From Nesterenkonia sp. Act20 (GTDB taxonomy: Bacteria > Actinomycetota > Actinomycetes > Actinomycetales > Micrococcaceae), in contig NZ_JADPQH010000001.1 in the NCBI RefSeq assembly GCF_019173455.1, positions 1,268,391 to 1,332,390 on the forward strand: a stretch of 64,000 nt of DNA, in the 5' to 3' direction. The notes beneath the pieces were generated by a model. It saw nothing but the letters and a program-made list of their open reading frames with translations. It made no database searches and had not been told where the DNA came from. Shown in pieces: positions 13,084-56,292 of this stretch. Numbering within the stretch: the stretch's first letter is position 1; each line of letters opens with the position of its first letter. The translations under genes were made by a program, and so were the position numbers.

Positions 13084-13111
13084 CGTGGCTCCTCTGCCTT
13101 GTTTCAATCTC

Positions 13112-27395: not shown

Positions 27396-28352
27396 ATGAG
27401 AACTTCTGCAGACTTCCCGGCCGAGGAATCCCCTGCTCCGCGAGCCGTGCTGGTCGGCTGCGGCGATGTCGGCACGCGCATCGGACATCGCCTGCTCGAA
27501 CGCGGCTTCTCCGTCACCGGATGGCGACGCAGCCCGGAGCGGCTCCCCGCTGAGTTCGACGGCGCGGCGATGGACCTCACCGAGCCCGACTCCGTGCCCC
27601 AGCCGCCTGCTGACACCGCGGCACTGGTCTTCTCCCCCGCCGCCGGCAGCCGAGATCCGCAGCGCTACGAGCAGGTCTATCTCCAGGGTCTGAGCACCGT
27701 GCTGGACCGCCTGGAACAGGCAGGCCTCGCGGGTTCAGTGCGGGTCCTGCTGGTCTCCTCCACCTCGGTGATGGGCGACGCCGAAGGCATGCTCGACGAA
27801 TCCGCTCCGCTCACGCCGGCCAGTCCGACGGGCGAGATCCTGGCCCGTACCGAGGAGCTGCTGGCGAGGTGGCGCACCGCTGGGGCCGATGCGTCTCCGC
27901 GGCGACGCAGCAGCACGCTGCGCCTCTCCGGCATCTACGGTCCGGGCCGAGACCGCATCCGCAAGCAGCTGCGCGCGGGCTCGGTGGGCGAGGCCGCAGG
28001 TCAGGACACCCAGGATGCCTGGAGGATCTCCAACCGGATCCATTCCGATGACGCCGCCCGCGCCGCCGTCGAGCTGTTGACCCACCCGGCCCCGCCGGAA
28101 CTCGTGCTGGGAGTGGATGAGCTCCCCATCCCCATCGGTGTGGTGCAGAACTGGATGGCCGATCAGCTTGAGCTGCCCCGACCGTGGAGCGATCCGCGTC
28201 TGGAACCGGCGCTGCTGGAGAGTTCCCGGCCGATGGATCTGCTTGCCGCGGGTCATGGCAAGTCGCTCGACGGGTCCCGGCTTCGCGGGCTGCTCGGCGA
28301 GCTGCTGCACCGGGACTTCCGCTCGGGCTACGCCGCGATGCTGAGTGATTGA
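27396..28352 (+). CDS. NAD-dependent epimerase/dehydratase (atypical SDR)
   Basis: 318 aa; N-terminal Rossmann VLVGCGDVGTRIG; SDR-like core. Confidence 0.6.
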   Translation: MRTSADFPAEESPAPRAVLVGCGDVGTRIGHRLLERGFSVTGWRRSPERLPAEFDGAAMDLTEPDSVPQPPADTAALVFSPAAGSRDPQRYEQVYLQGLSTVLDRLEQAGLAGSVRVLLVSSTSVMGDAEGMLDESAPLTPASPTGEILARTEELLARWRTAGADASPRRRSSTLRLSGIYGPGRDRIRKQLRAGSVGEAAGQDTQDAWRISNRIHSDDAARAAVELLTHPAPPELVLGVDELPIPIGVVQNWMADQLELPRPWSDPRLEPALLESSRPMDLLAAGHGKSLDGSRLRGLLGELLHRDFRSGYAAMLSD

Positions 28353-28444
28353 TCGGCGCCACCCCAGGAATGAGCCGCCCCACGCGTCTGCGTTCCACCT
28401 CGTGTGCTTGACATCACATCTGCTCCGGTGCTTCAGTTGACTTA

Positions 28445-28460
28445 CTGACCATTCGGTCTG
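28445..28460. promoter_or_regulatory. PaaR-type operator-like motif upstream of paaI
   Basis: actgaccattcggtctgg, related to the sites at 34977 and 56270. Confidence 0.45.
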
Positions 28461-28481
28461 GAAATGCGATGAGGAGCACCG

Positions 28482-28940
28482 ATGACTGAATCCACCCAGC
28501 TCGCCCCGGCGGGTCATGAGAGCTCCCACCAGGGCCCGCGGCACCGGATGCTGGAGAACGATCGCACCTCGCAGGCGCTGGGGATCGTGGTTCTGCAGGC
28601 TGATCCCGGCCACGCGAAGATCAGCATGACGATCCGTGAGGACATGACCAACGGCTTCGACATCGCCCACGGCGGGATGATCTTCTCGCTGGCCGACACC
28701 TGCTTCGCGATGGCCTGCAACCACCCCGAGCTGGACGAGGGCACGATCACCGTGGCCTCCGGCGTCGACATCAATTTCCTGAAGCCCGCCCTGCTCGGCG
28801 ACGAGGTCGTCGCCGAAGCGATCGAGGTGGCGCACACCGGACGCAGCGGCTTCACTGATGTGACGATCAGCCGCGGCGACGACCTCATCGGCATCTTCCG
28901 TGGCCGCTCACGCACCATCGCCTCCCCCGGAAAGAAGTGA
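28482..28940 (+). CDS. paaI: Hotdog-fold thioesterase PaaI (phenylacetyl-CoA pathway)
   Basis: 152 aa; PaaI/4HBT signature (HGGMIFSLADTCFAMA). Confidence 0.8.
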   Translation: MTESTQLAPAGHESSHQGPRHRMLENDRTSQALGIVVLQADPGHAKISMTIREDMTNGFDIAHGGMIFSLADTCFAMACNHPELDEGTITVASGVDINFLKPALLGDEVVAEAIEVAHTGRSGFTDVTISRGDDLIGIFRGRSRTIASPGKK

Positions 28941-28944
28941 ACCC

Positions 28945-30276
28945 ATGAGCATCCTCAACACCGAGACCGACGAGGCCGCCGCGACCGAACCCGGCCAGCC
29001 CGACCCCGCCGAGCTGATGACCCGCGAGGAGATCGAGGCGCTGCAGCTCACCCGGCTGAAGGCCACCATCCGCCACGCCTACGAGAACGTCGCGGCCTAC
29101 CGCGAGCTCTATGACGCACACGGCGTCGGCCCCGACGACCTGCAGACACTGGACGATCTCGCGAAGTTTCCCTATACCGATAAGGAGTTCCTGCGCGCGG
29201 CCTACCCCTTCAAGGCGTTCGCCGTGCCGATGGAGCAGGTCCGTCGCGTCCATGCCTCCTCCGGCACCACGGGCCGTCCCACGGTGGTGGGCTACACCGA
29301 TGAGGACATCGACACCTGGGCCACGTTGCTCGCCCGCTGCCTGCGCTTCTCCGGCGTGCGCCCCGGAGACCTGGTGCACAACGCCTACGGCTACGGACTC
29401 TTCACCGGCGGCCTTGGAGCCCACTACGGGATCGAGAAGCTCAAAGCCACGGTGATCCCCATGTCCGGCGGTCAGAGCGAGAAGCAGGTCCAGCTGATCC
29501 AGGACTTCAAGCCCAGGGTCATCCTGTGCACCCCGACCTACCTGCTCGCGCTGGCAGACGCCTTCCGCAACGCCGGGGTGGATCCGCGAGAGACCTCGCT
29601 GGAAGTGGCAGTCCTCGGCGCGGAGCCCTGGACCGACAAGATGCGCCACGAGATTGAGCAGACCTTCAACCTCACAGCCTGTGACATCTATGGACTCTCC
29701 GAGGTCATGGGCCCCGGCGTGGCAGGTGAGTCCGGAGAACGCCAGGACGGCTCCACCATCTGGGAAGACCACTTCCGCCCCGAGATCATCGACCCGATCA
29801 GCGAAGAGGTGCTGCGCACCGGCGAACACGGCGAGCTGGTGTTCACCACGCTGACCAAGCAGGCGCTGCCCATCATCCGCTATCGCACCCACGACCTCAC
29901 CCGGCTGCTGCCCGGCTCGGACCGGCCCGGTCACCGCCGGATGGGCCGGATCACCGGCCGCAGCGATGACATGATCATCCTGCGCGGGGTCAACCTCTTC
30001 CCCTCCCAGATCGAAGAGATCGCCCTGGAGATCCCCGGGCTCTCCCCGCATTTCCAGCTGCGCCTGGCTCGGCCGGAGAAGATGGACGAGATGACCGTGC
30101 ACATCGAGCGGCGCCCGGAGACCAGCCTCGAAGCCGCTGAGGCCGCAGGCGCAGAGCTGGGCCGGCAGATCAAGGTCAAGGTCGGCTCCAGCTGCCGGAT
30201 CACCGTGGAAGAGCCCGGTTCGCTGGCCCGCTCCTCCGGCAAGCTGCGCCGGATCTATGACCAACGCCCGAAATAA
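28945..30276 (+). CDS. paaK: Phenylacetate-CoA ligase
   Basis: Start at internal ATG (MSILNTE...) 5 nt after the paaI stop; AMP-binding motif SSGTTGRPTVVGYT, PaaK fold. Confidence 0.8.
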   Translation: MSILNTETDEAAATEPGQPDPAELMTREEIEALQLTRLKATIRHAYENVAAYRELYDAHGVGPDDLQTLDDLAKFPYTDKEFLRAAYPFKAFAVPMEQVRRVHASSGTTGRPTVVGYTDEDIDTWATLLARCLRFSGVRPGDLVHNAYGYGLFTGGLGAHYGIEKLKATVIPMSGGQSEKQVQLIQDFKPRVILCTPTYLLALADAFRNAGVDPRETSLEVAVLGAEPWTDKMRHEIEQTFNLTACDIYGLSEVMGPGVAGESGERQDGSTIWEDHFRPEIIDPISEEVLRTGEHGELVFTTLTKQALPIIRYRTHDLTRLLPGSDRPGHRRMGRITGRSDDMIILRGVNLFPSQIEEIALEIPGLSPHFQLRLARPEKMDEMTVHIERRPETSLEAAEAAGAELGRQIKVKVGSSCRITVEEPGSLARSSGKLRRIYDQRPK

Positions 30277-30918: not shown

Positions 30919-31282
30919 CCCTCACGAGAAACTTTTCATTGCATCGGGCAACTGCCTGAAGTCCCGCCACGGCAGCGATGCAGGCGCGCACACTCCCCCG
31001 TGAGGCGTCATTTTCGCGGTGAACGGCACCGCACACCTGTTGACCGTCGAGTTTTGTTCAAGCTAGCGTCGAACCAAATCAAGGGTGCCGCTCACGTGTT
31101 TTCACTTGTCAGTGACACTCTCAGTCCACCCAGGGCTGGTCCTGGGAATCTTTTGTGTCCTCGATCCATCGAAGATCTGAAGATTTCAGTCGATTCCGCG
31201 ACAGATGCCTGTCCCGGAGTGCAGCCACTCCAGCTCACCATCGACCAGGTCTGATCACACCTGCGCATGGAGGTACCAACGG

Positions 31283-32719
31283 ATGGATATTCTGACGACG
31301 GGCGGCACACTCGCCCTGGTGATCGCTCTGCTGGTGGCCGCGGTGGTGATCGGCGCCGTGGTGCTGCTGATGATGCGGGCCTGGACCAAAGTCGCCCGGG
31401 CCGATGAGGCACTCGTGGTCACCGGCAAGTCCTCCCGGTCCGATGTGCCGGGTTCGCGACCCAAACAGGTCATCGTCAACGGACGAGCCATGGTCAACCC
31501 GATCCGACAGCGGCACGAGATCATCTCGCTGCGCTCCCGGCAGGTCCTGATGACGGTCACCGCGCAGAGTCACGACAACGTGACGATCAACGCCGAGGCC
31601 GTGGCGCTGGTCAAGATCGGCAGCGCGGACGAGGACGTCAAGGCAGCCTCGGAGCGCTTCGCCTCCCAGGACGACGCCGTGGTCGAGTACACCCAGGACC
31701 AGCTCGAAGGTGCTCTCCGTGGGCTGATGGCCCAGCAGACCGTCATCCAGCTGATGCGCGACCGACAGAAGTTCTCCGATGAGATCTCCAAGTCGATCTC
31801 CCCCGAGCTGCTCACCCAGGGCCTCCTGCTGGACTCCTTCCAGATCCGTGAGATCACTGACGATTCGGGGTACATCTCCTCCCTGGGCGCTCCGGAGATC
31901 GAAGCCAAGCGCCAGGCCGCCGAGATCGCCGCGACGAATGCCGAGCGTGCGATCGCCAAGGAGCGGATCTCCAACAGCGAGCAGAACCTGGTCGAGGAGA
32001 CCGAGTACGACTCGAACAAGGCCGCTGCGGCTTCGCGAGTCGGTCAGGCACGAGCTCAGGCCGAGCAGGCGGAGGCCCTGGCCGGGGAGAAGGCTCGGCA
32101 GGAGGTCCTCGGACAGCGCGCGGAGAACCGCCAGGCTGAGCTCGACGCCGAGGTGAAGCGTGTCGCCGACGCTGATCTCTACAAGCAGCAGAAGCGCGCC
32201 GACGCCGAGGCCTACGACCGCACCAAGGCCGCCGAGGCGGAGGCACTGGTCGCCGAATCAGAGGCACGCGCGCGCCTCCAGCGCTCTGAGGCTGAGGCCA
32301 CCGCCATACGTGCCGAGGGCGAGGCGAAGGCTTCTGCAATCCGTGCCGAGGCTGAGGCGCTGCGCGAGAACCAGGAAGCCGTATTGGCCCGTGAGGCCCT
32401 CTCCGTGCTCCCCCAGCTGATGGAATCCTTCGCAGCCGGCTATGCCAACGTCGGATCCGTGACGCTCATCGGTGGCAGCGGCGAATCGGGTGCCGCGAAG
32501 CACTTCGACGGTGAGTCCTCGGTCGCCCTGGCAGGAGTCTTCAAGAGCGTCGAGGCCACCACCGGGATCGATCTCGGGTCGATTCTGCAGTCGAAGGCCC
32601 AGGGAACGGCGATCGGTGAGGCACTGGCCGAGTCCAGTTCCGGCATCGGCACCGGCACCGGCACCGGCACCGGCACCGGCACCGGCACCAAGGAAGCGGA
32701 GAGCACACAGAACGAGTAG
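31283..32719 (+). CDS. Flotillin-like SPFH/band-7 membrane protein (YqiK/FloT-like) with (GT)7 tail
   Basis: Start at internal ATG MDILTTGG of track ORF 31205; N-terminal TM helix, SPFH domain, long A/E-rich coiled-coil (EA repeats), C-terminal GTGTGTGTGTGTGT. Confidence 0.75.
   Translation: MDILTTGGTLALVIALLVAAVVIGAVVLLMMRAWTKVARADEALVVTGKSSRSDVPGSRPKQVIVNGRAMVNPIRQRHEIISLRSRQVLMTVTAQSHDNVTINAEAVALVKIGSADEDVKAASERFASQDDAVVEYTQDQLEGALRGLMAQQTVIQLMRDRQKFSDEISKSISPELLTQGLLLDSFQIREITDDSGYISSLGAPEIEAKRQAAEIAATNAERAIAKERISNSEQNLVEETEYDSNKAAAASRVGQARAQAEQAEALAGEKARQEVLGQRAENRQAELDAEVKRVADADLYKQQKRADAEAYDRTKAAEAEALVAESEARARLQRSEAEATAIRAEGEAKASAIRAEAEALRENQEAVLAREALSVLPQLMESFAAGYANVGSVTLIGGSGESGAAKHFDGESSVALAGVFKSVEATTGIDLGSILQSKAQGTAIGEALAESSSGIGTGTGTGTGTGTGTKEAESTQNE
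32648..32689. repeat. Hexanucleotide microsatellite (ggcacc)x7 inside the flotillin 3' end
   Basis: Read directly; in-frame, encodes (Gly-Thr)7. Confidence 0.9.
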
Positions 32720-32827
32720 GTACCCAGCAGTCCAGATGGTCTTGCCGCGTTCCCCCGTGCGTGAGATTCTGCCCTGAGTCAGACGTCCCCCTCGGGGACG
32801 GTCGTTCAGCGCAGAGGGAGTCGAGCA

Positions 32828-33562
32828 GTGCTCAGCAGTGAGATCGCCGATCTCGCGGGGGTCACCGTGCGCACGCTGCGCCACTACCATCACATCGGAG
32901 TGCTTCCCGAGCCCCCTCGCAGCTCCGCCGGCTACCGCCACTACGACATCAGCCATCTGGTTCAGCTCTTGCGCATCAAGAGACTGACCGCACTGGGCTT
33001 CCCACTGGCAGACCTAGAGACGGCCCTGGATGTTCCTTCGGCCGCCGAGAACCTGCTCGAGGAGCTTGACCTGCAGGCCGCCGCCGAGATCGAGCGTCTC
33101 AACGCGCGCCGTGCACGCATCGCTGAACTGCGCAGCAGCGGATCCCCGGCTGATCTCTCACCCGAACTGGCAGCCTGGCGCTCGGCTCCAGAGGCGCTTC
33201 TCTCCGAAGAGATTTCGCAGCTCGAACACGAACAGCTGGTGCTGCTCGGGCACCTCCTGGGGGACGGCGGGCACGAGACCTTCTCGGCCGGTTTCGCAGC
33301 GCTGAACACCCAGTTGATCACACCGCTCACGGCGCGCTTCGCCGCCCTCGACACCGACACACCCGACACCGAGATCGAGGCTCTGACCCAGGAGATGATC
33401 TCTGTCCTGCGCCCTGTGAATAAGAGGTTCGCGGATCTTCCGCCCTTGGATGACCAGGTCATCGCGCTGATGGACGAATTGGCTGAGCAGAGGCTGCATC
33501 CTGTCCAGCGTCGTGTTCTGCGCCAGATCCAGCAGGTGATGGAACAGCTCGAGGACAGCTGA
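32828..33562 (+). CDS. MerR-family transcriptional regulator
   Basis: 244 aa; N-terminal MerR HTH (LSSEIADLAGVTVRTLRHYHHIGVL), C-terminal effector domain. Confidence 0.75.
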   Translation: MLSSEIADLAGVTVRTLRHYHHIGVLPEPPRSSAGYRHYDISHLVQLLRIKRLTALGFPLADLETALDVPSAAENLLEELDLQAAAEIERLNARRARIAELRSSGSPADLSPELAAWRSAPEALLSEEISQLEHEQLVLLGHLLGDGGHETFSAGFAALNTQLITPLTARFAALDTDTPDTEIEALTQEMISVLRPVNKRFADLPPLDDQVIALMDELAEQRLHPVQRRVLRQIQQVMEQLEDS

Positions 33563-33605
33563 ACCTCCGAGGACTTGACCCTGACGCGACGTCATAGCCT
33601 GAACT

Positions 33606-34838
33606 GTGCGCATGAACAGAACCTCGCTCTTCTACTTCGCCTCATTCGTCGCCTCCCTGCTGGGCAATTCGATCACCACCATCGCCCTGCCGCTGCTCGT
33701 GCTGTTCACGACCGGCAGTCCGCTCGACGCCGGAATCGTGGCGATCGCCGCCTCGGTGCCGGCCGCGATCGCCGGGCTGCTGATGGGTTCGCTCATCGAC
33801 CGGATCAATCGACGCACCGCATCGATCATCGCGGATGTCATCTCCGCCCTCGCACTGCTCATCCTGCCCATCGTCGAACTGACGGTCGGGCTGAACCCGA
33901 GCTGGTTCATCGCCGTGGCGGTATCGAGCTCCTTCGGAGACGTCCCCGGAATCACCGCCCGGGAAGCGATGCTCCCGGCCGTCGCGAAGGCGGCGGGAGC
34001 GGAGCCGTCGCGGCTCATCGGCCTGCGCGAAGCACTCACCGGGGTGACCATGCTCATCGGTCCGGCCATCGCCGGCGTGCTGGTCGCAGCCCTGGAGCCG
34101 GTGACGGTCCTGTGGTTCACCTCCGGCCTAGCGGGCCTGGCGGTGCTGCTCACCCTCGGCATTCCGTCCAGGGCGACGGCGCATCAGCGTGACCGCGACG
34201 CGGAGACCTCGACGCAGGGCATGAGCTCGGTCTTCAACGGCCTCAACATTCTGCTCCGCTCCCCGCTGCTTCGCGGAATGCTGCTGCTGGCCATCACGCT
34301 CGGGGTCGTGCTCGCGGCCATCCAGGGCATGGTGGTGCCGGTCCACTTCGCCTTCCAGAATGAACCTCAGTACGTCGGATTCGTGCTCAGCTCACTCGCC
34401 GCAGGCCTGCTTGTAGGCGGTGGCCTCTTCGCGGCCCTCGCCAACAGATTCCCGCGCAGGGTCTGGTTCATCTCCGGCATCGTCATTCTGGCGGTGGGTT
34501 TCGGCGGCCTCGCCTTCCTCGGCCCGGTCTGGACGATCTTCGCCTCGGCCGCAGTCGCTGGTCTCGGCGGTGGCGCCATGAACGCCGTCGTCGGACTGAC
34601 CTTTGTGGAGAACGTCGACGAGTCCCAGCGTGGCAGGGTCCTGGGCGCACAGAACGCGATCTTGACCCTCGCACCGGCGCTGGGCATCGGCGGTGGGGCT
34701 GTCCTGATCGATACCGGCAGTCTGCACCTCGCGACCACGGCCTTCGTCGCAGCCTGGGTGGTGGTCTCGCTCGGATCCCTGTTCAACCCGCTGATCCGCA
34801 GACTCGGCGAACCCTCCCGTGAGCTCGTCGATGCGTGA
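33606..34838 (+). CDS. MFS transporter (efflux type)
   Basis: 410 aa, ~12 TM helices; paired with the MerR regulator. Confidence 0.75.
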   Translation: MRMNRTSLFYFASFVASLLGNSITTIALPLLVLFTTGSPLDAGIVAIAASVPAAIAGLLMGSLIDRINRRTASIIADVISALALLILPIVELTVGLNPSWFIAVAVSSSFGDVPGITAREAMLPAVAKAAGAEPSRLIGLREALTGVTMLIGPAIAGVLVAALEPVTVLWFTSGLAGLAVLLTLGIPSRATAHQRDRDAETSTQGMSSVFNGLNILLRSPLLRGMLLLAITLGVVLAAIQGMVVPVHFAFQNEPQYVGFVLSSLAAGLLVGGGLFAALANRFPRRVWFISGIVILAVGFGGLAFLGPVWTIFASAAVAGLGGGAMNAVVGLTFVENVDESQRGRVLGAQNAILTLAPALGIGGGAVLIDTGSLHLATTAFVAAWVVVSLGSLFNPLIRRLGEPSRELVDA

Positions 34839-34976
34839 ACACGCTTGACCACGGGGAGGGAGCCCACTCAGCCGCAGCGACGCAACAGCCCGACACTCGG
34901 CTCAGGAGGGCTCCCCACCCCGGACCTCCGATCTTTCGCTGGCTCTGCGTGTTGACCGTCACACCTCCAGTGCTAT

Positions 34977-34998
34977 ACTGAACGAACGGTCGGTAAAT
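34977..34998. promoter_or_regulatory. PaaR-type operator-like motif upstream of paaA
   Basis: actgaacgaacggtcggtaaat ~20 nt upstream of the paaA ATG; near-identical to 56270-56292. Confidence 0.5.
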
Positions 34999-35016: not shown

Positions 35017-36054
35017 ATGACCATGTCACCCCAGAACCACCAGCACGCGCCCCTTCGCCTCGCCGATGAGGCAGATGCCGCTGCGGCGCGCGACGAGGCA
35101 GAGTCCGGACAGCACCGCTTCGACGAGATCATCGCCGATGACTCTCGCATCGAGCCGCGGGACTGGATGCCGGAGTCCTACCGGAAGTCTCTGGTGCGAC
35201 AGGTCTCCCAGCACGCCCACTCCGAGATCATCGGCATGCAGCCCGAAGGCAACTGGATCTCCCGCGCGCCCAGCCTCAAGCGCAAGGCCATCCTGATGGC
35301 CAAGGTCCAGGACGAGGCGGGCCACGGGCTGTACCTCTACTCCGCCGCCGAGACCTTGGGCACCCCCCGCGAAGACATGTATGACCAGCTCTACAGCGGC
35401 AAGGCCAAGTACTCATCGATCTTCAACTACCCGGCACGCACCTGGGCCGACGTCGGCGCCATCGGCTGGCTGGTCGACGGCGCCGCGATCGTCAATCAGG
35501 TGCCGCTCTGCCGCGCCTCCTACGGACCCTATGGCCGCGCCATGGTCCGCATCTGCAAGGAGGAGTCCTTCCACCAGCGCCAGGGCTGGGAGATCCTCTA
35601 CTCGCTGTCCCACGGCACGCAGGAGCAGCGCGAGATGGCCCAGGCCGCCGTGGACCGCTTCTATGGGCCGGCGCTGCAGATGTTCGGACCACCGGACGGA
35701 GACTCCCCGAACTCGCAGCAGTCGATGGCGTGGAACATCAAGCGCTTCACCAATGACGAGCTGCGCCAGCGCTTCGTGGACATGATCGTCCCGCAGGTCG
35801 AGGCCCTGGGCCTCACACTCCCCGACCCCGAGTTGAAGTGGAACGAAGAACGCGGTCACTACGACTTCGCCGAGCTGGACTGGGACGAGTTCTTCGCCGT
35901 GATCAAGGGCAACGGCCCCTTGAGCCGCCAGCGCCTGGAGCACTACCGCAGCGCACGCGACGAGGGAGCCTGGGTCCGCGAGGCCGCCGTGGCCTATGCG
36001 AACCGCGTGTCCCAGGAGCAGGACCGCGACCAGGCAGCCTTGATCGGCGCCTGA
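35017..36054 (+). CDS. paaA: 1,2-phenylacetyl-CoA epoxidase subunit A
   Basis: 345 aa ferritin-like di-iron protein ([15 protein letters not shown] motifs). Confidence 0.85.
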
Positions 36055-36128
36055 GCGTCACCCACTCCCCCACCACCCCCGCACGCTGACCGACCCGACG
36101 TCGTCACCACCGCAAGAAAGGCGAGGCC

Positions 36129-36428
36129 ATGTCCTCCAGCGCAGATTCGAGCTCCTGGCCTCTCTGGGAGGTCTTCATCCGAGGCTCCCGCGGCCTCTCC
36201 CACGTCCACGCCGGCTCCCTGCATGCCCCCGATGCCACGATGGCGATCCGCAATGCCCGGGATCTCTACACTCGGCGCAACGAGGGCACCTCGGTGTGGG
36301 TCGTCCCGGCTGAGGCGATCATGGCCTCGGATCCGGACTCCAAGGGCGGCTATTTCGAATCGGCCCAGGGCAAGAGCTACCGCCACGCCACCTATTACAC
36401 CCAGTCAGAAGGGGTGAAGCACCTGTGA
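36129..36428 (+). CDS. paaB: 1,2-phenylacetyl-CoA epoxidase subunit B
   Basis: 99 aa; PaaB signature LWEVFIRG. Confidence 0.85.
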   Translation: MSSSADSSSWPLWEVFIRGSRGLSHVHAGSLHAPDATMAIRNARDLYTRRNEGTSVWVVPAEAIMASDPDSKGGYFESAQGKSYRHATYYTQSEGVKHL

Positions 36429-37252
36429 GCTTCGCATCGCATGACTCCGCCACCCGGCAGTCCCAGGGCGAGGCGATCACCGCTGAGGAGATCGCAGCCT
36501 CAGGTGCCACGGCCGATGAGGCCACCGCCCGCTATGCCCTGATCCTGGGCGACGACGCGCTGATGCTCTCCCAGCGACTCGGCGCCTGGGTCTCTCGTGC
36601 ACCGGAGCTGGAGGAGGACGTGGCCCTGGCGAACATCGCGCTGGATCTGCTGGGCCACGCCAGGTTCCTGCTCACCTACGCCGGCACCGCCTGGGGCAAG
36701 TCCGAGGATGACCTCGCCTACTTCCGCGAGGAGGAGGAGTTCCGCTCCTGCCGCCTGGTGGAGCAGGAGAACGGGGACTTCGGCAAGACCATCGCCCGGC
36801 AGCTGATCTTCAGCTTCTACCAGCACGAGCTCTACAGCCGACTTGTGCACTCCACGGACGCCACTCTCGCGGCGATCGCGGAGAAGGCGCTCAAGGAGGT
36901 GGACTACCACCAGGACCACGCCGCCCAGTGGGTGCTGCGCCTGGGACTGGGCACCGAGGAGTCCTCGCGACGCATGCAGGCCGGCCTGGACTCAGTCTGG
37001 TCCTATGTGGAGGAGCTCTTCACCGATGTGGAGCCCATCACCGAGCTCGGCGACGTCGCAGTGCTGCCCTCGACTCTGCGCGAACCCACGCTGAACCGGC
37101 TGCACCAGGTCATCGAACAGGCCGATCTGAGCGTGCCAGACATGTCCGGCGCCCACGGAGCCGACCGATCCGGACGCCACTCCGAGCAGCGCGGATTCAT
37201 CCTGGCCGAGATGCAGGTCCTGGCCCGCCGCCACCCTGGAGCCACCTGGTGA
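36425..37252 (+). CDS. paaC: 1,2-phenylacetyl-CoA epoxidase subunit C
   Basis: 275 aa ferritin-like, overlaps the paaB stop. Confidence 0.8.
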   Translation: MSFASHDSATRQSQGEAITAEEIAASGATADEATARYALILGDDALMLSQRLGAWVSRAPELEEDVALANIALDLLGHARFLLTYAGTAWGKSEDDLAYFREEEEFRSCRLVEQENGDFGKTIARQLIFSFYQHELYSRLVHSTDATLAAIAEKALKEVDYHQDHAAQWVLRLGLGTEESSRRMQAGLDSVWSYVEELFTDVEPITELGDVAVLPSTLREPTLNRLHQVIEQADLSVPDMSGAHGADRSGRHSEQRGFILAEMQVLARRHPGATW

Positions 37253-37263
37253 GAGGAGCAGTC

Positions 37264-37776
37264 ATGGGGACGTTGAGACCAGAAGCCGTGACCCTTCCCG
37301 CAGACGCCACCGTGTGGGAGGTCGCCGCCACCGTGAATGATCCGGAGATTCCGGTGCTCAGCATCGCCGATCTCGGAATCCTGCGCGAGGCACGGCTGGA
37401 CGAGGACGGCACCGCCGTCGTCGTCATCACGCCCACCTACTCGGGCTGCCCCGCCATGGACACGATCCATGCCGATGTCACGGCGGCGCTGCGCCACGCC
37501 GGGCACGAAGCCGTGCGCGTGGACACCGTGCTGCAGCCGGCCTGGACCACCGACTGGATGACCGATGAGGGCAAGGCGAAGCTGCGTGAGTACGGCATCG
37601 CCCCGCCGACCGGCAAGGCGGCCCTCGGGCCGGTCCGAGTGGGCCTGAGCGTGAAATGCCCGCGTTGTGACTCCCCCAATACCCGTGAGATGACCCGCTT
37701 CGGCTCCACCGCATGCAAGGCGCTCTACCAGTGCCGCGACTGCCTGGAGCCCTTTGACCACTTCAAGGTGCACTGA
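37264..37776 (+). CDS. paaD: 1,2-phenylacetyl-CoA epoxidase subunit D (DUF59/SufT-like)
   Basis: 170 aa from internal ATG of track ORF 36928; C-terminal CPRC...CRDC zinc-ribbon. Confidence 0.8.
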   Translation: MGTLRPEAVTLPADATVWEVAATVNDPEIPVLSIADLGILREARLDEDGTAVVVITPTYSGCPAMDTIHADVTAALRHAGHEAVRVDTVLQPAWTTDWMTDEGKAKLREYGIAPPTGKAALGPVRVGLSVKCPRCDSPNTREMTRFGSTACKALYQCRDCLEPFDHFKVH

Positions 37777-38927
37777 TGTCGACGACCACCCGCCGCCGCG
37801 CGAGCTTCTCCACGCTGACCGTCTCCGAAGTGCGCCCACTGACCTCGGACTCGGTGGAGGTCACCTTCGCCGTTCCCGAGGAGCTGCAGGAGGACTTCGA
37901 CTACGCACCCGGCCAGTACGTCGCGCTGCGCACCGAGCTGGACGGCCAGGAGGTCCGCCGCTCCTACTCGATCTGCACCGAGCCCACCCCCGGAGAGATC
38001 CGCGTTGCGATCAAACGTGACATCGGTGGCCTGTTCTCCAACTGGGCCAACGAGTCGCTGAAGCCCGGAGATCAGATGGAGGTGATGAACCCCTCCGGGG
38101 CGTTCGTCTCCAAGACGGCGATCACCTCGATGAACAATCCCGCGAAGCTCGCGGAGGAGGCGGTGGCGCTGCGCTCGGACGTGCACCTGGTCGCCTTCGC
38201 CGCAGGATCAGGGATCACTCCGATCATGGCCATCGCACGCTCCGTGCTGGCCGCCTCAAAGGACTCCACCTTCGACCTCGTCTACGCCAACCGCTCCGCG
38301 GGTGACGTGATGTTCGCCGAGGAGCTGGGTGATCTCAAGGACCGTTATCCCTCCCGGCTCGCGGTGCACCATGTGCTCAGCCGGGAGCAGCGCATCAACC
38401 CGCTGCTCACCGGGCGGATCGACGAGGAGAAGCTCAGCGATCTGCTGGACAAGGTGCTGCGCGTCCAGGACACCGATGAGTGGTTCCTCTGTGGGCCCTT
38501 CGAGCTGGTGCAGATGGCCCGGGACTTCCTCGCAGCCCGCGGAGTGGATGAGAATGACGTCCGCTTCGAGCTGTTCACCACCGGACGCCCGGACCGCCCC
38601 GAAGGTCAGCAGGGCCGCAAGGTGGAGGCCGATCCGGAGGGCGAGAACGTCCAGATCGAGTTCACCCTCGACGGACTCACCGGCCAGGTGGCCTCGCCGA
38701 CGGGTTCGGGAGAGACCGTGCTCAACGCCGCACTGCGCGCCCGCTCGGACGTGCCGTTCGCCTGCGCGGGCGGAGTCTGCGGCACCTGCCGCGCGAAGGT
38801 CGTTTCTGGAGATTTCGAGATGGAAGAGAACTTTGCGCTGGAGTCCGACGAGGTCACGGCGGGCTACATCCTGACCTGCCAGACCCGTCCCACCTCCGAG
38901 AAGCTCGTGGTCGACTACGACGCCTGA
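37776..38927 (+). CDS. paaE: 1,2-phenylacetyl-CoA epoxidase reductase subunit (FNR-like + plant-type [2Fe-2S])
   Basis: 383 aa; FAD (RSYS), NAD and C-terminal CAGGVCGTCRAKV ferredoxin motifs; 1-nt overlap with the paaD stop. Confidence 0.85.
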   Translation: MSTTTRRRASFSTLTVSEVRPLTSDSVEVTFAVPEELQEDFDYAPGQYVALRTELDGQEVRRSYSICTEPTPGEIRVAIKRDIGGLFSNWANESLKPGDQMEVMNPSGAFVSKTAITSMNNPAKLAEEAVALRSDVHLVAFAAGSGITPIMAIARSVLAASKDSTFDLVYANRSAGDVMFAEELGDLKDRYPSRLAVHHVLSREQRINPLLTGRIDEEKLSDLLDKVLRVQDTDEWFLCGPFELVQMARDFLAARGVDENDVRFELFTTGRPDRPEGQQGRKVEADPEGENVQIEFTLDGLTGQVASPTGSGETVLNAALRARSDVPFACAGGVCGTCRAKVVSGDFEMEENFALESDEVTAGYILTCQTRPTSEKLVVDYDA

Positions 38928-38953
38928 GCGCCACCACCGACACAGGAGCTGCC

Positions 38954-39724
38954 ATGATCAACCTCACCATCGTCGACGGCGTCGCCGAGATCGTCCTCGA
39001 CGCCCCCAAGAAGCTGAACTCGCTGGATGAGCAGGCCATCGACGACCTCGACGCGGCCTACCAGGAGGCCGAACAGGCAGAGGTCCGCTCCCTGCTGCTG
39101 CGCGGCGAGGGCAAAGGCTTCTGCGCCGGGCGGGACATCTCCGAAGTCGTGCCGGCCACCGACGACGCGCTCGGCTTCCTGCAGGGGAAGGTCACCCCGC
39201 TGATGCGCCGGATGGCCGCCTTCCCGGCACCGACCTTCGCCGCGGTCCAGGGCGCGTGCCTGGGCGTCGGGCTGGGACTGGCCATCGCTACAGACGTGGT
39301 CTATGTCGCCGAGAACGCGAAGATCGGCTCTCCCTTCGCAGCACTGGGCGCCACGCTGGATTCCGGGGGTCACGCCCTGTTCGTGGAGCGTCTCGGTGCC
39401 CACCGCACCCTGGATCTGATCTACACCGGGGACCTGATGTCCGGAGCTGAGGCGGTCGCGGCCGGGCTCTTCTCCCGTGCCGTGGATCCGGAAGAGCTCC
39501 TCGAGTTCACCCGAGGGAAGGCCGCCGTCGCCGCCCAGGGGGCCACGCTGGCCTTCCGCGAGTCGAAGGCACTCGTGGCGACGCTGCGGGACCAGCGCAT
39601 CGGACTCTGGGAGTCGCTGAAGGATGAGAACCACGCCCAGGGTCGGCTGTGCGACTCCGCGGATTATTCGGAGGGTTTCGCCGCCTTCCAGTCCAAGCGG
39701 AAGCCCATCTTCCACGGTCACTGA
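38954..39724 (+). CDS. paaG: Enoyl-CoA hydratase/isomerase (PaaG/PaaF-like)
   Basis: 256 aa crotonase fold (GFCAGRDI oxyanion-hole motif). Confidence 0.7.
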   Translation: MINLTIVDGVAEIVLDAPKKLNSLDEQAIDDLDAAYQEAEQAEVRSLLLRGEGKGFCAGRDISEVVPATDDALGFLQGKVTPLMRRMAAFPAPTFAAVQGACLGVGLGLAIATDVVYVAENAKIGSPFAALGATLDSGGHALFVERLGAHRTLDLIYTGDLMSGAEAVAAGLFSRAVDPEELLEFTRGKAAVAAQGATLAFRESKALVATLRDQRIGLWESLKDENHAQGRLCDSADYSEGFAAFQSKRKPIFHGH

Positions 39725-40040: not shown

Positions 40041-41003
40041 TTAGCCGCCGATGATCTGTCGGCGAAATTCGCCCGGCGAGACACCGTACTCATGCTTGAA
40101 TGCACGGCTGAAGCTCGACGCGTCCGGGTAGCCCCAGCGGGCCGCCACCGCGCTCACTGATCGACGCGACTGTGCCGGGTCACCGAGTTCTATGCGACAG
40201 CGCTCCAGCCGACGACGACGGATCCACTCGCTGATCGTCGTTCCCTCCTGCGCAAAGACGCCCTGCAGATAGCGCAGTGAGACATGCAGGGCCCGCGCCA
40301 CAGCTTCGACCCCGAGGCCGGGGTCGCTCAGGTGGTCGTCGATATGTCTGACCGCCTCCAGGTAGACCACGTCCCTGGTGGGAACATCTGAGGTGGGCCT
40401 GAAGCGCGAGAGCAGCGTCGCCTGGACCAGCTGCAACACTGCCGAAGCCGCACGCGGATCCGGGGCCATCTCCCCCTTCTGCAGCTGATCGTCAAGGCTC
40501 CCCAGCAGCGAAGATGTCAGGGCTCCCAACCCCGCACTTCCTGGGATCCGCTGAGCCACCACCTCTCGCGCCTGTTCGGCGGAGAGACCGAGATGCTCCA
40601 CTGCGATCTGCACGACGAACATTCGGTAGGCGCCATCGAAGACGAGGTCATAGGGTCGGCGAGTGTCATAGATGACGAGGTCTCCTGGTGAGAGCAGGGC
40701 CTCGCGTCCATCCTGTCGCGTGAGTGAACTCCCCTCGACCTGCAGAGCGAACTTGAAGACTCCTGGGTCCCCTGCGGCGATCGTCTGCCGACTTCGACGC
40801 ACTGTCACGGCATCCCCGCCCACCCCGGCCACGCTCAATGAGCCGAGAGCCAGCCCGGTGAGAGAGCCGTGGAACTGAGCAGGGTGCTCCGTCCTGGCAT
40901 CGAGCGGGACGAAAGCGGTGTTCACGGCGTGGCGCCACGCTTCGAAGCGCTCACCAGGCGCCAGCGGGTCGGGGTCGAAGGACACCTGCCCCGTCGTCAT
41001 CAT
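40041..41003 (-). CDS. AraC/XylS-family transcriptional regulator (FeaR-like)
   Basis: C-terminal double HTH (AVAARWGYPDASSFSRAFKHEYGVSPGEFRR); start taken at MMTTGQ (the track ORF extends to 41093, so the exact start is uncertain). Confidence 0.7.
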   Translation of the reverse strand: MMTTGQVSFDPDPLAPGERFEAWRHAVNTAFVPLDARTEHPAQFHGSLTGLALGSLSVAGVGGDAVTVRRSRQTIAAGDPGVFKFALQVEGSSLTRQDGREALLSPGDLVIYDTRRPYDLVFDGAYRMFVVQIAVEHLGLSAEQAREVVAQRIPGSAGLGALTSSLLGSLDDQLQKGEMAPDPRAASAVLQLVQATLLSRFRPTSDVPTRDVVYLEAVRHIDDHLSDPGLGVEAVARALHVSLRYLQGVFAQEGTTISEWIRRRRLERCRIELGDPAQSRRSVSAVAARWGYPDASSFSRAFKHEYGVSPGEFRRQIIGG

Positions 41004-41186
41004 GCTTGCCCACCGGCCTCTTTCCTGCTGATCTGCATGCTCCCAGTCTTCCACCTTATTGTGACCCGAGACACAATCATGCGCATGGTGCACAGGTCCG
41101 TGCGTCTGAGATCAAGGCGGGTGCCTGATCTGCGGAGATGCTGGTCTCCTCACCGCAGGACGGCGATTCAAGGAGACGAGAAGACG

Positions 41187-42710
41187 ATGGATGCACCCCG
41201 GACAAGCGAATACATCGTGATCGGCGCAGGGTCAGCTGGCTCGGCGATCACTCGGCGCCTGCTCGATGCCGGACACAGCGTGCACGTGATCGAGGCTGGC
41301 GGCCAGGATGAGGACCCCAACATCCACAGCCCCCAAGGCTGGCCCCTGCTCATGCAGGGACCGTCGGACTGGGCACTGACCACTGTGCCTCAGGTGCATG
41401 CGGACAATCGCAGCATCGCCTGGCCGCGCGGCAAGGTGTTGGGAGGGTCAGGCTCGCTCAACGGCATGATCTATATCCGTGGTCACCGTTCGGACTACGA
41501 CAAGTGGGCCGCTGCAGGATGCGAGGGCTGGGCGTGGGAGGACCTGCTGCCACTGTTCAGGCGTTCGGAAGACCACGAAGACGGAGCCTCCGAGTTCCAC
41601 GGCGCCGGCGGACCGCTGCACGTGGAGAAGATCGTGCACCGCCACGCGAGCTCCGAAGCGTTCGTCGAGGCGGCAGGAAGCGTCGGAATCCCCGAGACCC
41701 AGGACTTCAACGGCGAGCAGATGTCCGGAGCCGGGTTCAACCATACGACCACTAAGGACGGGAAGCGGCACAGCCCCTGGCGCGCGTTCATCCAACCGAT
41801 CCTGGGGCACGAGCGGCTCACCGTCACCACTGACGCCATGGTGCACCGGATCACCCACGAATCCGGGCAAGCCACCGGGGTGGAGTACAGCACCGCGTCT
41901 GGGGCTCACATCGCCCGCGCTGAGGCGGAGATCATCCTCTGCGGCGGAGCAATCGGCTCCCCCTCGATCCTGCAACGCTCCGGCATCGGTGATCCGTCTG
42001 ATCTTCGCCAGGCGGGCATCGATTCGGCGCTGGAGCTTTCCGGCGTCGGCAAGAACCTGCAGGATCATGTGCTTGCAAGCGTCATCTACGAGGCCCCCGA
42101 GCCGCTTGCCGAGGGACGGCACAATCTGCTGGAGGCGCAGCTCTTCGCGCACAGTCGACAGACCGACGAGGAGGCACCCGACATCCAGCCGCTCTTCATG
42201 CATTTCCCGTATCCCACCGACGGCGGAGAGGTGCCCGCAGCTGGCTTCACCATCAACGCCGGGATCGTCCGTCCGCGCTCCCGCGGGACGCTGCGGGTGA
42301 CCAGCTCCGATCCAAAGGCCTCTCCGCTGCTGGATCCGAATCTGCTGGCCGAGGAGTATGACCTGGAGGCTCTCTGTGACGCGATCGAGCTCTGCCGCGA
42401 AATCGGCGAACAGGATGCTCTAGCCCCCTATCGCAGAGCCGACTTCAACCCTGCCGGACCGTTGAAGACCCGCGACCAGGTCCGCGACCACGCCCGGGCC
42501 ATGGCGGGGACGTACCACCACCAGGCCGGCACATGCCGGATGGGCGTGGACGACCTCTCGGTGGTTGACCCCCAGCTGCGTGTGCGCGGAGTGACCGGCC
42601 TGCGCGTGGCCGACGCCTCGATCATGCCCGCACTGCCCAGCGGCAACACCAATGCCCCGTCGATCATGATCGGCGAGAAGGCCGCCGACCTGCTGCTGCA
42701 GAGTCGCTGA
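41187..42710 (+). CDS. GMC-family FAD oxidoreductase (choline/alcohol dehydrogenase-like)
   Basis: Start at MDAPRTSEYIVIGAGSAGS (ADP-binding bab motif) with AGGAGACG upstream; the track ORF start at 40869 is an over-extension. Confidence 0.8.
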   Translation: MDAPRTSEYIVIGAGSAGSAITRRLLDAGHSVHVIEAGGQDEDPNIHSPQGWPLLMQGPSDWALTTVPQVHADNRSIAWPRGKVLGGSGSLNGMIYIRGHRSDYDKWAAAGCEGWAWEDLLPLFRRSEDHEDGASEFHGAGGPLHVEKIVHRHASSEAFVEAAGSVGIPETQDFNGEQMSGAGFNHTTTKDGKRHSPWRAFIQPILGHERLTVTTDAMVHRITHESGQATGVEYSTASGAHIARAEAEIILCGGAIGSPSILQRSGIGDPSDLRQAGIDSALELSGVGKNLQDHVLASVIYEAPEPLAEGRHNLLEAQLFAHSRQTDEEAPDIQPLFMHFPYPTDGGEVPAAGFTINAGIVRPRSRGTLRVTSSDPKASPLLDPNLLAEEYDLEALCDAIELCREIGEQDALAPYRRADFNPAGPLKTRDQVRDHARAMAGTYHHQAGTCRMGVDDLSVVDPQLRVRGVTGLRVADASIMPALPSGNTNAPSIMIGEKAADLLLQSR

Positions 42711-42753
42711 ACATCTTCCTCGATCACCACCGCTGACCCTTTAGGAGAACACC

Positions 42754-44151
42754 ATGACCACCACCCTGCTCGAGCAGATCCAGTCCACTGACGGCCCAGA
42801 GATCCTCGACCCCGCCACCGGTGAGTTCATCGCCCGGGCGCCGCAGACCTCCCCCGCAGACCTCGACGACGCCGTCGCCCGTGCCGTGCGCGCCCAGGTC
42901 TCCTGGGCTGCCACGCCAGACGCCGAGCGGCAGGCCGCACTGCAGTCCGCCGCCGACGCGGTCGAGGCTCACGCCGAGGAACTCGCCCAGCTGCTCTCCC
43001 GTGAACAGGGAAAGCCGCTCAACGGCCCCAATGCGCGCTTCGAGGTCGGCGCCTGCGTGGCCTGGCTGCGCACCGCCGCATCGATCCCGGTGGAGCCTGA
43101 GGTCCTCCTCGACGACGAGTCCGGGCACGCCGAGCTGCACTACCGTCCGCTTGGCGTCGTCGGCGCGATCGGACCCTGGAACTGGCCGATGATGATCTCC
43201 GTGTGGCAGATCGCCCCCTCGCTGCGCATGGGCAACACGGTGGTCATCAAACCCTCCGAATACACCCCGCTCAGCGTGCTGGCCCTGGTCAAGGTCCTGA
43301 ACTCGGCCCTGCCGGAGGATGTGCTCATCGCGGTTCCAGGTGACGGCTCACTGGGCAAGCAGCTCACCGAGCACGCCGATATCGCGAAGATCATGTTCAC
43401 CGGTTCGGTGGCCACGGGCAAGGCCATCATCAAGACTGCCGCCGACACGATGAAGCGGATGACCATGGAGCTCGGCGGCAACGACGCCGGGATCGTGCTG
43501 GACGACGCCGATCCGGCGGCCATCGCGGAGGACCTGTTCTGGGGCGCGTTCATCAACACCGGTCAGACCTGCGCGGCACTGAAGCGACTCTACGTGCCGG
43601 ACTCGATCTACGACGAGGTCTGCCAGGCACTGACGGCGGTCGCGGCGAAGATGCCGATGGGCGTCGGCCTCGAGGAGCAGAATGTGCTGGGACCGCTGCA
43701 GAACGCCAAGCAGCGTGACATCGTGGCCCGTCTCGTGGACGCCGCGAAGGACTCCGGTGCGCGCGTGCTGATCGGCGCCAACCCCGACGACGACGCCGCA
43801 GGCTTCTTCTATCCCGCCACCCTCGTGGCAGACATCGACCAGCAGAACCCGCTGGTCACCGAGGAGCAGTTCGGCCCGGCCCTGCCGATCATCCGTTACA
43901 GCGACCTGGACCAGGCCATCGAATGGGCCAACGGTCTCGAGGTCGGTCTCGGCTCCTCGGTCTGGTCCTCAGACGTCACGCGTGCCACCGAAGTCGCCTC
44001 CCGGCTTCAGGCCGGCACCACGTGGATCAACAAGCACGGCGCGATCGATCCACGAGTGCCCTTCGGCGGAGCCAAGCAGTCCGGCTTCGGACTGGAGTTC
44101 GGGCTGCAGGGACTCAAAGAGGTCGCTCAGCCGCACGTGATCCAGCGCTGA
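42754..44151 (+). CDS. NAD(P)-dependent aldehyde dehydrogenase
   Basis: 465 aa ALDH fold (ELGGNDAGIV, catalytic Cys region GQTCAALKRLYV). Confidence 0.85.
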   Translation: MTTTLLEQIQSTDGPEILDPATGEFIARAPQTSPADLDDAVARAVRAQVSWAATPDAERQAALQSAADAVEAHAEELAQLLSREQGKPLNGPNARFEVGACVAWLRTAASIPVEPEVLLDDESGHAELHYRPLGVVGAIGPWNWPMMISVWQIAPSLRMGNTVVIKPSEYTPLSVLALVKVLNSALPEDVLIAVPGDGSLGKQLTEHADIAKIMFTGSVATGKAIIKTAADTMKRMTMELGGNDAGIVLDDADPAAIAEDLFWGAFINTGQTCAALKRLYVPDSIYDEVCQALTAVAAKMPMGVGLEEQNVLGPLQNAKQRDIVARLVDAAKDSGARVLIGANPDDDAAGFFYPATLVADIDQQNPLVTEEQFGPALPIIRYSDLDQAIEWANGLEVGLGSSVWSSDVTRATEVASRLQAGTTWINKHGAIDPRVPFGGAKQSGFGLEFGLQGLKEVAQPHVIQR

Positions 44152-54122: not shown

Positions 54123-56231
54123 TCACACCCACTCGGGCTTGTTCTCCTTCGCCACACGGGTCAGCACGTCATAGGTGGCCACGATCTCGTCATGCTGGTT
54201 GTGCAGCACCGTGTCCCAGCGGACCTCGCCGTAATCATCGGTCTCGCGCGGGATGATCTGCTTGGCGGTCAGGGTCACTCGGATCGAGTCGTCGTAGGTC
54301 ACCGGGGTCTGGAAGGAGAGGTTCTCCAGGCCGGTGTTCGCCAGCACCGGCCCCGGTGCCGGCTCCACGAAGAGCCCCGCAGCCCAGGCCACCAGCAGGT
54401 AGCCGTGCGCCACCCGGCGCGGGAAGAACGGGTTCGCGGTCGCGGCCTCTTCATTGGTGTGCGCGTAGAAGGTGTCTCCGGTGGACTCGGCGAAGGCGGT
54501 GATGTCCTCCAGCGCCACAGTGCGCAGGCCCGAGGCGAACTGGTCGCCGATGCGCAGCTCCGCCAGGGACTTGCGGAACGGGTGCACCGCCGTGCCCTCG
54601 GCCACCGTCTCCGGCGTCGCCGTGACGGCCTTCGCTCCGCGGTGCCAGACTCCGGTCACGCCGGTGAGGAGATCGGGCGAGCCCTGGACCGCGGTGCGCT
54701 GCATATAGTGCTTCACTGCGCGGATGCCGCCCAGCTCTTCGCCGCCCCCGGCCCGGCCGGGACCGCCGTGGACCAGATGCGGCAGCGGGGATCCGTGCCC
54801 GGTGGAGGTCTTCGCGTCGTCGCGGTCGAGGAAGAGCACCCGGCCGTGATGGGAGGCGATCCCCCGGGTGAACTCCGCGGCGATCTCCGGGTCGTGGGTG
54901 CAGACCGTTGCCACCAGGGAACCGCCGCCGAGCGCGGCGAGGTCAACGGCGTCGTCGATGTCGGCATAGCCGAGCACCGAGGTGACCGGCCCGAAGGCCT
55001 CGACCGAGTGCACCGCGGGGGTGCGGGGCTCGGCGAAGGAGAGCACGGTGGCCGGGAAGAATGCGCCCCGTGCAGCATCGGCCGAGCCGGTGCCTGATTC
55101 GGGTCCGCCCACCCGCACCGCGCCGCCGGCGCTGACCAGCGTGTCCACCGCCCGGGCGACCTCATCGCGCTGGTCGGTGGAGGCCAGCGGCCCCATCGTG
55201 GTGTCGGCGTCACGCGGATCACCGAGGACCACACGGGACTCGAGCCGGGCACGCAGCGCCTCCACCACAGGGTCCACCTGGGCGGAGGGCACGATGACGC
55301 GGCGGATGGCGGTGCACTTCTGTCCCGTCTTCGCGGTCATCTCCAGGGTCACCGACTTGATGAAGGCCTCGAACTCCACGGTGTCAGGCGCCGCATCGGG
55401 GCCGAGGATGGCGGCATTGAGCGAATCGGTCTCCGCGGTGAAGCGCACGCCCTGGTTCGCCACATTCTCATGGGAGCGCAGCAGCTGGGCGGTGTTCGCG
55501 GAACCGGTGAAGGCCACGTGATCTCGATGATCCAGGTGATCGAGCAGGTCGCGGGCGGATCCGGAGATCAGCTGCAGCGCACCGGCGGGGATCAGTCCGG
55601 AATCGATCATCAGCCGCACACAGGCCTGCGTGACATAGGCGGTCTGTGAGGCGGGCTTCACGATGGTCGGGACCCCGGCGATGAAGCTGGGGGCAAACTT
55701 CTCGAGCATCCCCCAGACGGGGAAGTTGAAGGCGTTGATCTGCACCGCGACACCGGTCAGCCTGGTGTAGATGTGTTCACCCAGGAAGGATCCGTCCCGG
55801 GAGAGCTGCTCCACCGCCCCGTCGACGATGACGTTCGCGTTCGGCAGCTCCTTGCGCCCCTTGGAGGAGAAGGTGCGGATCGTACCGATGCCGCCGTCGA
55901 CGTCGACCAGGTGGTCCCGACGCGTGGAGCCGGTCCGGTCGGAGAGCTCGTAGAGCTCCTCGCGGTGCTCGTGGAGGTAGGCCGCCAGGTGCTTGAGCCG
56001 CAGCGCACGCTGGTGGATCGTCAGCTGCCCCAGACTGGTCTGACCTGCCGAGCGGGCATGGGCGACGGCGGCCGCCGTGTCCACCCCCTCCGTGGAGACC
56101 TGGCAGACCGGCTCACCGGTGGACGCGTCGAGGATCTCGCTGACCCGCTCCGGGCTCTCCGGGGTCCACCAGGAGTCCTGGATGTAGCTGGGCAGCAGGC
56201 GCGGAGCCGCAGAAGTTTCAATGGCAGCCAT
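54123..56231 (-). CDS. paaZ: Bifunctional PaaZ (ALDH domain + MaoC-like hydratase: oxepin-CoA hydrolase / 3-oxo-5,6-dehydrosuberyl-CoA semialdehyde dehydrogenase)
   Basis: 702 aa; N-terminal ALDH fold, C-terminal MaoC hotdog (last ~150 aa). Confidence 0.8.
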
Positions 56232-56269
56232 GGGGTCCTCTCGATGAGCGTGGGACAGACCGGAGCAGA

Positions 56270-56292
56270 ACTGACCGATCGGTCGGTAATTT
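56270..56292. promoter_or_regulatory. PaaR-type operator-like motif upstream of paaZ
   Basis: actgaccgatcggtcggtaattt with near-perfect 14-bp palindrome TGACCGATCGGTCg, ~40 nt upstream of the paaZ start. Confidence 0.5.

Follow-up and report, generated by a model that had tools for sequence, protein, structure and literature searches.

In Burkholderia cenocepacia, the TetR-type regulator PaaR (BCAL0210) acts on the inverted repeat ACCGACCGGTCGGTT to repress three separate paa clusters, and phenylacetyl-CoA releases it (PMC2770484; PMC9493321). One conserved copy of this repeat, 15 bp long and with abutting halves (ACCGACC and GGTCGGT), lies in each core promoter, between the -35 and -10 elements. 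According to secondary accounts of Sakamoto et al. 2011 (PMC9493321, PMC6651687), PaaR of Thermus thermophilus HB8 (TTHA0973), likewise a TetR-family repressor of paa operons freed by phenylacetyl-CoA, binds CNAACGNNCGTTNG. Regarding Actinomycetes, PaaR has been described as the predominant regulator of paa clusters (PMC13186573), a putative PaaR site of the form AACGA-N4-TCGGT has been reported in Streptomyces pristinaespiralis (PMC10933834), and a comparative study of the PaaR regulon is cited in the RegPrecise paper (PMC3840689). The same physiological role is fulfilled in E. coli and Pseudomonas by PaaX, a phenylacetyl-CoA-responsive repressor of the paaZ and paaA promoters, yet this protein belongs to another family (GntR-type) and recognizes another operator (PMC9493321).

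The window analyzed here, a 64,000-nt stretch of the genome of Nesterenkonia sp. Act20 (Micrococcaceae), contains a gene for a TetR-family regulator, paaR, and three copies of a palindromic box, one per intergenic region and each ahead of the first gene of a paa unit. A similar arrangement is said to occur in Corynebacterium glutamicum: the paa cluster there includes the gene for a TetR-type repressor PaaR, and several actinobacterial paa operons are preceded by an imperfect palindrome; this regulator, together with a comparative PaaR regulon of Actinobacteria, was reportedly described by Chen et al. in 2012 (Appl Environ Microbiol; cited in PMC9493321, PMC3840689 and PMC9210681). The C. glutamicum motif is reportedly the 22-mer ACTNACCGNNCGNNCGGTNAGT, and the paaZ copy of the window fits it at 17 of its 18 specified positions. 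The three boxes are, in all likelihood, operators of PaaR, acting as a repressor released by phenylacetyl-CoA.

Comparison with NCBIfam models showed that the genes previously named PaaI, PaaK, PaaABCDE and PaaZ, as well as the TetR-family gene after paaK, had been correctly assigned (Table 1). The alignment of PaaK to TIGR02155 begins at residue 39 of the protein, whose real start is probably later than the GTG at 28900. Given the gap of 12 bp between paaK and paaR, the regulator is presumably co-transcribed with paaK and autoregulated, and a terminator-like hairpin located 3' of paaR is likely the end of the paaIKR unit. The loci had been described as physically separated; there are indeed three units, but they lie merely about 4 kb and 17 kb apart. 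After annotation of the remaining ORFs, which include purine catabolism genes, a sugar ABC transporter and a 2-oxo-acid dehydrogenase complex, no paaF, paaH or paaJ genes were found in the 64-kb window, the enoyl-CoA hydratase/isomerase gene at the end of the paaABCDE operon being the sole representative of the lower pathway. No GntR-type gene, the family to which PaaX belongs, was present among the approximately 50 annotated ORFs of the window, where the regulator families represented were TetR, MerR, AraC/FeaR-like, LysR and Lrp/AsnC.

The PaaR protein of the window, a TetR-family protein of the kind with an N-terminal helix-turn-helix domain, had 67 TetR-family relatives in the PDB, the best being 2iai (SCO3833; E 2e-47), and its relatives carry the domains PF00440 and PF17932. 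Its closest relatives were from Nesterenkonia (98% identity with a protein encoded in a contig of an uncultured member of the genus, L001), and its identity with the paa-linked TetR protein of Corynebacterium pilosum (L038) was 53%. There is no PaaR model in NCBIfam, and homologues in the databases are named only "TetR/AcrR family"; the present analysis thus provides a functional annotation for a gene so labelled.

Table 1. Positions of paa genes, predicted promoters and boxes in the window, and of a gene pair in two related loci (own coordinates of each locus).
Feature	Position	Strand	Details
paaI, hydroxyphenylacetyl-CoA thioesterase	28482..28940	+	TIGR02286, 127.8 bits, over cut-off
paaK, phenylacetate-CoA ligase	28900..30276	+	TIGR02155, E 5e-190, 631.5 bits, just below the 646 cut-off
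paaR, TetR-family regulator, 209 aa	30289..30918	+	TetR-family models only
Terminator-like hairpin and T-run 3' of paaR	31129..31146	+	
paaA-paaB-paaC-paaD-paaE and enoyl-CoA hydratase/isomerase	35017..39724	+	TIGR02156, 02157, 02158, 02159, 02160, all over cut-offs
Enoyl-CoA hydratase/isomerase (PaaG/PaaF-like)	38954-39724	+	Under PaaG cut-off
paaZ, bifunctional oxepin-CoA hydrolase / aldehyde dehydrogenase	54123..56231	-	TIGR02278, 1038.7 bits
Putative paaI promoter	28408..28437	+	TTGACA (28408-28413), 18-nt spacer ending TGC, TTCAGT (28432-28437); read from sequence
Predicted paaA promoter, sigma-70-like	34952..34979	+	TTGACC, 16 nt, (TGc)TATACT; 10/12 positions, extended -10
Candidate PaaR-type operator before paaI-paaK-paaR	28440..28465	.	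ACTTACTGACCATTCGGTCTGGAAAT; axis between 28452 and 28453; 26.1 bits
Candidate PaaR-type operator before paaABCDE	34973..34998	.	CTATACTGAACGAACGGTCGGTAAAT; axis between 34985 and 34986; 35.6 bits
Candidate PaaR-type operator before paaZ	56266..56291	.	CAGAACTGACCGATCGGTCGGTAATT (plus strand); axis between 56278 and 56279; 32.0 bits
Site quoted before paaI	28444-28465		ACTGACCATTCGGTCTGGAAAT
Site quoted before paaA	34977-34998		ACTGAACGAACGGTCGGTAAAT
Site quoted before paaZ	56270-56291		ACTGACCGATCGGTCGGTAATT; gene on minus strand
Thiolase and hydroxyacyl-CoA dehydrogenase pair, Nesterenkonia L005	13351-15389		
Thiolase and hydroxyacyl-CoA dehydrogenase pair, Nesterenkonia L006	13561-15599		

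A preliminary description of this DNA had noted a motif of about 20 nt shared by the three upstream regions. All three quoted sequences were found in the window; the coordinates given for the paaA (34977-34998) and paaZ (56270-56292) sites were exact, while those for paaI (28445-28460) were slightly off, as the site starts at 28444 rather than 28445 and the quoted 18-mer occupies positions 28444-28461. The degenerate 17-mer proposed for this motif had three exact matches in the window, and the sole match added when up to two mismatches were allowed was the palindromic paaZ copy read on the reverse strand (0.20 expected from shuffles). Because that pattern had been derived from the three sites themselves, making its own hit count circular, an independent palindromic matrix was built exclusively from upstream regions of paaA, paaI and paaZ in other genera (142 regions, loci L008-L080). 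The top recurrent 8-mer in a de novo enrichment analysis was ACTGACCG/CGGTCAGT, found in 52 of the 142 upstream regions vs. 18 of 1420 random control pieces, and the matrix seeded with it was iterated to 65 distinct sites, resulting in a 26-bp palindrome with consensus AATTACTGACCGATCGGTCAGTAATT.

With this independent matrix, the three boxes ranked first to third in the 64-kb window (35.6, 32.0 and 26.1 bits for paaA, paaZ and paaI, respectively), and the best scores of 200 windows simulated with a first-order Markov model had a mean of 6.1 and a maximum of 20.3. No further sites were detected in the window, the fourth-best position scoring 3.0 bits (a gap of 23 bits), nor did a matrix based on the three sites reveal additional ones, its next non-overlapping match (12.9 bits) being located within a gene. 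As the score gap between true sites and background exceeds 20 bits, the 26-bp matrix is usable for the annotation of PaaR regulons in Micrococcales and other Actinomycetota. The paaI copy was the weakest of the three and is degenerate, with ACCA/CTGG replacing ACCG/CGGT. Distances between box and start codon ranged from 17 to 39 nt (17 for paaI, 18-24 for paaA and 38 for paaZ).

The motif of about 20 nt proved to be real, but it covers only part of the element, which in full is a palindrome of 26 bp. The 3' tail GGTAAAT corresponds to the outer arm GTAA(w)T, the mirror of the left TTAC, and is not extra sequence; the near-perfect palindrome already recognized in the paaZ copy, TGACCGATCGGTC, carries the symmetry axis of the whole element. 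Each half-site holds a 4-bp direct repeat (ACTG-ACCG), and a second pseudo-palindrome, shifted by 2 bp, can therefore also be read, so that two positions of the axis are possible. Across the 73 loci of other genera the dominant axis was ACCG-N2-CGGT, 2 bp to the left of the one implied by the C. glutamicum 22-mer (ACCG-N6-CGGT). The offset frame, which is probably the one used in that 22-mer, is a better fit for the two Corynebacterium pilosum loci (L038, L039), where ACTGACCGGATGGTCGGTAAGT was found before paaK. The conserved 26-bp palindrome thus contains overlapping pseudo-palindromes 2 bp apart.

When compared with the B. cenocepacia system, the window shares the TetR-type regulator, the three putative target units and a nearly identical half-site word (ACTGACC vs. 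ACCGACC). The arrangement of the paa gene cluster differs, however, and so does the architecture of the site: in Nesterenkonia the half-sites are 4 bp further apart, within a 26-bp palindrome placed on or after the -10 element. The T. thermophilus sequence is the counterpart of the central 14 bp of the box described here, in the variant TGAACGwwCGTTCA, yet it is shorter, without the outer TTAC/GTAA arms, and comes from a phylogenetically remote organism. The paaA copy matches the putative S. pristinaespiralis site exactly (AACGA-ACGG-TCGGT).

Among the distinct sites from other genera (125 sites, L008-L080), the ACCG/AACG half-site position was heterotypic in 74 of 116 vs. 57.7 expected, a comparison that ignores shared ancestry. 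As far as we know, neither this excess of ACCG+AACG sites nor the 26-bp extent and the 2-bp ambiguity of the axis belong to the standard descriptions of PaaR operators. QacR-like TetR operators are long (about 26-28 bp), consist of overlapping inverted repeats and are bound by a pair of dimers. That the box could be more than a single-dimer site, namely a 26-bp composite operator formed from the 4-bp direct repeat of each half-site and read by two offset PaaR dimers, is a speculative reading, to which we attach a low probability; if it were true, the heterotypic excess would reflect a functional asymmetry.

A consensus scan for promoters upstream of paaA yielded one strong sigma-70-like promoter (vs. 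0.0 expected); its -10 hexamer is overlapped by the box, as is the transcription start, predicted to lie near 34986. Across six Nesterenkonia sequences the paaA intergenic region was unalignable up to the -35 element, and near-invariant from there as far as the ATG, with the box and the Shine-Dalgarno sequence included; the predicted promoter itself was invariant in these sequences, and the box was identical in L001-L004 and different by one base in L007. The same scan found no promoters at paaI and paaZ, where the elements were identified by reading of the sequence and by conservation. At paaI, a -10-like TGcTTCAGT is followed at a distance of 3-7 nt by the box, which would cover the predicted transcription start; conservation within the genus starts exactly at the -35 TTGACA (28408), and the box was conserved in the alignment of seven Nesterenkonia loci. 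At paaZ, the outer arm of the box coincides in part with a -10-like TAAATT of the gene strand, and no -35 element was recognizable. With promoters and transcription starts as predicted, the boxes are placed as would be expected if PaaR repressed by occluding RNA polymerase.

The paaI and paaA promoters had in common the arrangement TTGAC[A/C]-(G)TCACA[T/C]CT...GTGCT followed by the -10 (TTCAGT and TATACT, respectively), a likeness that extends beyond the operator and suggests a duplicated or co-evolving promoter module. A further 8-mer, TGTTGACG, was enriched upstream of paaA, paaI and paaZ in the other genera (38 of 142 regions vs. 7 of 1420 controls; L008-L080); it probably represents a shared -35 region, which in the paaA promoter of the window reads GTGTTGACC.

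A scan of one genome per species yielded 80 PaaR-related loci, spanning Micrococcaceae, Microbacteriaceae, Corynebacterium, Dermatophilaceae, Nocardioides, Streptosporangiaceae and other groups, and when the Paa proteins of the window were mapped onto them, the PaaR orthologue adjoined paa genes (paaI/paaK, paaABCDE and/or paaZ) in 68 loci. In the 73 loci from other genera (1.32 Mb scanned, with a site threshold of at least 15 bits), the box preceded paaA in 41 of 50 cases, paaI in 36 of 41, paaZ in 43 of 51 and paaJ in 25 of 29, and it was absent before the internal genes paaB, paaC and paaE (0/146). Almost all sites (151 of 159) were located in the upstream regions of first genes, most of the other eight being just beyond the distance limits set, and the box was found in both orientations relative to the genes. 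The paaJ sites were initially unassigned; annotation of the genes downstream of the box in Rothia (L016) and Kocuria (L010) revealed a 3-oxoadipyl-CoA thiolase, an enoyl-CoA hydratase and a 3-hydroxyacyl-CoA dehydrogenase. The box was carried by 25 of 29 paaJ-paaF-paaH operons, so that the additional hits at paaF, paaH and paaJ loci anticipated in the preliminary description do exist in the relatives.

None of 12 loci encoding a PaaR-like TetR protein, but without a paa homologue of at least 60% identity in the fetched flanks (10 kb), contained the box (L041, L044, L050-L054, L067, L071, L075, L076 and L030). These control loci were mostly from Microbacterium, with one from "Candidatus Nesterenkonia" and one from an unclassified member of Actinomycetales, and four or five of them held just a thiolase with 37-40% identity. 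Their TetR proteins share 49-55% identity with PaaR and probably represent paralogues directed at a different target.

In two Nesterenkonia species (L005, L006), genes for a hydroxyacyl-CoA dehydrogenase and for a thiolase sharing 75% identity with Rothia PaaJ were found 3-5 kb from paaR (Table 1), with no PaaR box at the pair, which appears to continue an operon from the upstream gene. These may not be true paaJ and paaH genes. The lower pathway (thiolase, hydroxyacyl-CoA dehydrogenase) may have escaped PaaR control in Nesterenkonia, a possibility that we regard as rather unlikely.

Assignment of the boxes to PaaR was weighed against binding by a different regulator, such as the FeaR-like AraC protein (40041-41093), the MerR protein (32828-33562) or an unlinked factor, with the TetR protein having its targets elsewhere. 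What the comparative data show is a co-occurrence of the box with paa genes; as paaR and the paa genes travel together in these loci, such co-occurrence does not by itself tell an association with PaaR from one with the paa genes. However, the AraC, MerR and MFS genes were not conserved neighbours, paaR being directly followed by paaA in L002 and L007; moreover, a box with 2-fold symmetry, as observed here, is typical of TetR dimers. Homologous TetR-type PaaR proteins have been shown to bind boxes closely related to this one; considering this and the lack of conservation of the other regulators in the neighbourhood, a different binding protein is improbable.

The probability is smaller still that the palindrome acts in the RNA, where a hairpin in the 5'-UTR would influence stability or translation, instead of serving as a protein-binding operator in the DNA. 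The boxes of paaA and paaI are situated downstream of the predicted -10 elements and would be partly transcribed, and any palindrome can in principle form a hairpin; yet no compensatory change was detected (complementary pairs in 42 of 125 sites vs. 57.7 expected at positions 10/17, and in 45 of 125 vs. 53.4 at positions 7/20), and the predicted leader folds were no more stable than those of shuffled sequences (z = +0.28, -1.50 and +0.83). The box also occurs in both orientations, and it is its sequence, not its pairing, that is conserved. In view of the lack of compensatory covariation and of folds stabler than shuffles, an RNA element was rejected. Regarding chance similarity, or a dispersed repeat devoid of a regulatory role, the circular hit count of the original pattern would have left room for such an explanation, but the matrix from other genera selected precisely these three positions, above all 200 simulated windows and with the 23-bit gap mentioned above. 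Copies are found solely before the first genes of paa operons, and sister species show little or no variation in the box, while their flanking intergenic DNA is unalignable. Together with the counts from other genera, the independent matrix and this conservation effectively refute the explanation, which we consider the least probable of all.

PaaR as the binding protein, repression as its effect and phenylacetyl-CoA as the inducer are inferred from the characterized homologues. In such a system, a PaaR dimer, or possibly two given the 26-bp length, would bind the palindrome TTACTGAcCGwwCGgTCAGTAA, which overlaps the -10 and start of the predicted paaA promoter and lies on or just downstream of the putative core promoters of paaI and paaZ, and the bound protein would block RNA polymerase. 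In the presence of phenylacetate, PaaK would form phenylacetyl-CoA, which would bind PaaR and free the DNA, switching on paaI-paaK-paaR, paaABCDE-hydratase and paaZ, with paaR expected to be autoregulated as a member of the first of these units. A candidate PaaR regulon had been proposed from the shared motif, and it is supported by the box before each of the three paa units and by the presence of the same box near TetR orthologues across Actinomycetota; it is not a new regulon, however, as regulons of this type have already been described. It is an ordinary PaaR/operator system of a known kind, newly seen in Nesterenkonia, which defines the regulatory logic of phenylacetate catabolism in this genus and leaves the current understanding of the system unchanged.

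Several features of the surrounding genes were also recorded. A flotillin-like gene, a MerR-family regulator and an MFS transporter are located between paaR and paaA (31205-34838); considering that in L002 and L007 paaA follows paaR after 0.2-0.7 kb, the cluster seems to have been split by the insertion of these three genes. The paaABCDE-hydratase operon is directly followed (40041-44151) by genes for a FeaR-like AraC regulator (minus strand), a GMC-family oxidoreductase and a StyD-like aldehyde dehydrogenase, which probably funnel phenylethanol, phenylethylamine or phenylacetaldehyde into phenylacetate under their own regulator; the best score of the PaaR matrix in this region was 3.0 bits. 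Directly upstream of the putative paaI promoter there is an ORF of 318 aa (27396-28352), without an NCBIfam hit and with a coding-like GC3 of 0.81. At the beginning of the window (1069-16613), genes related to purine/urate catabolism were found, encoding an amidohydrolase, XdhC, a fused xanthine dehydrogenase (1332 aa), a MobA-like transferase, a xanthine/uracil permease, a uricase, an M20 peptidase and a class-V aminotransferase.
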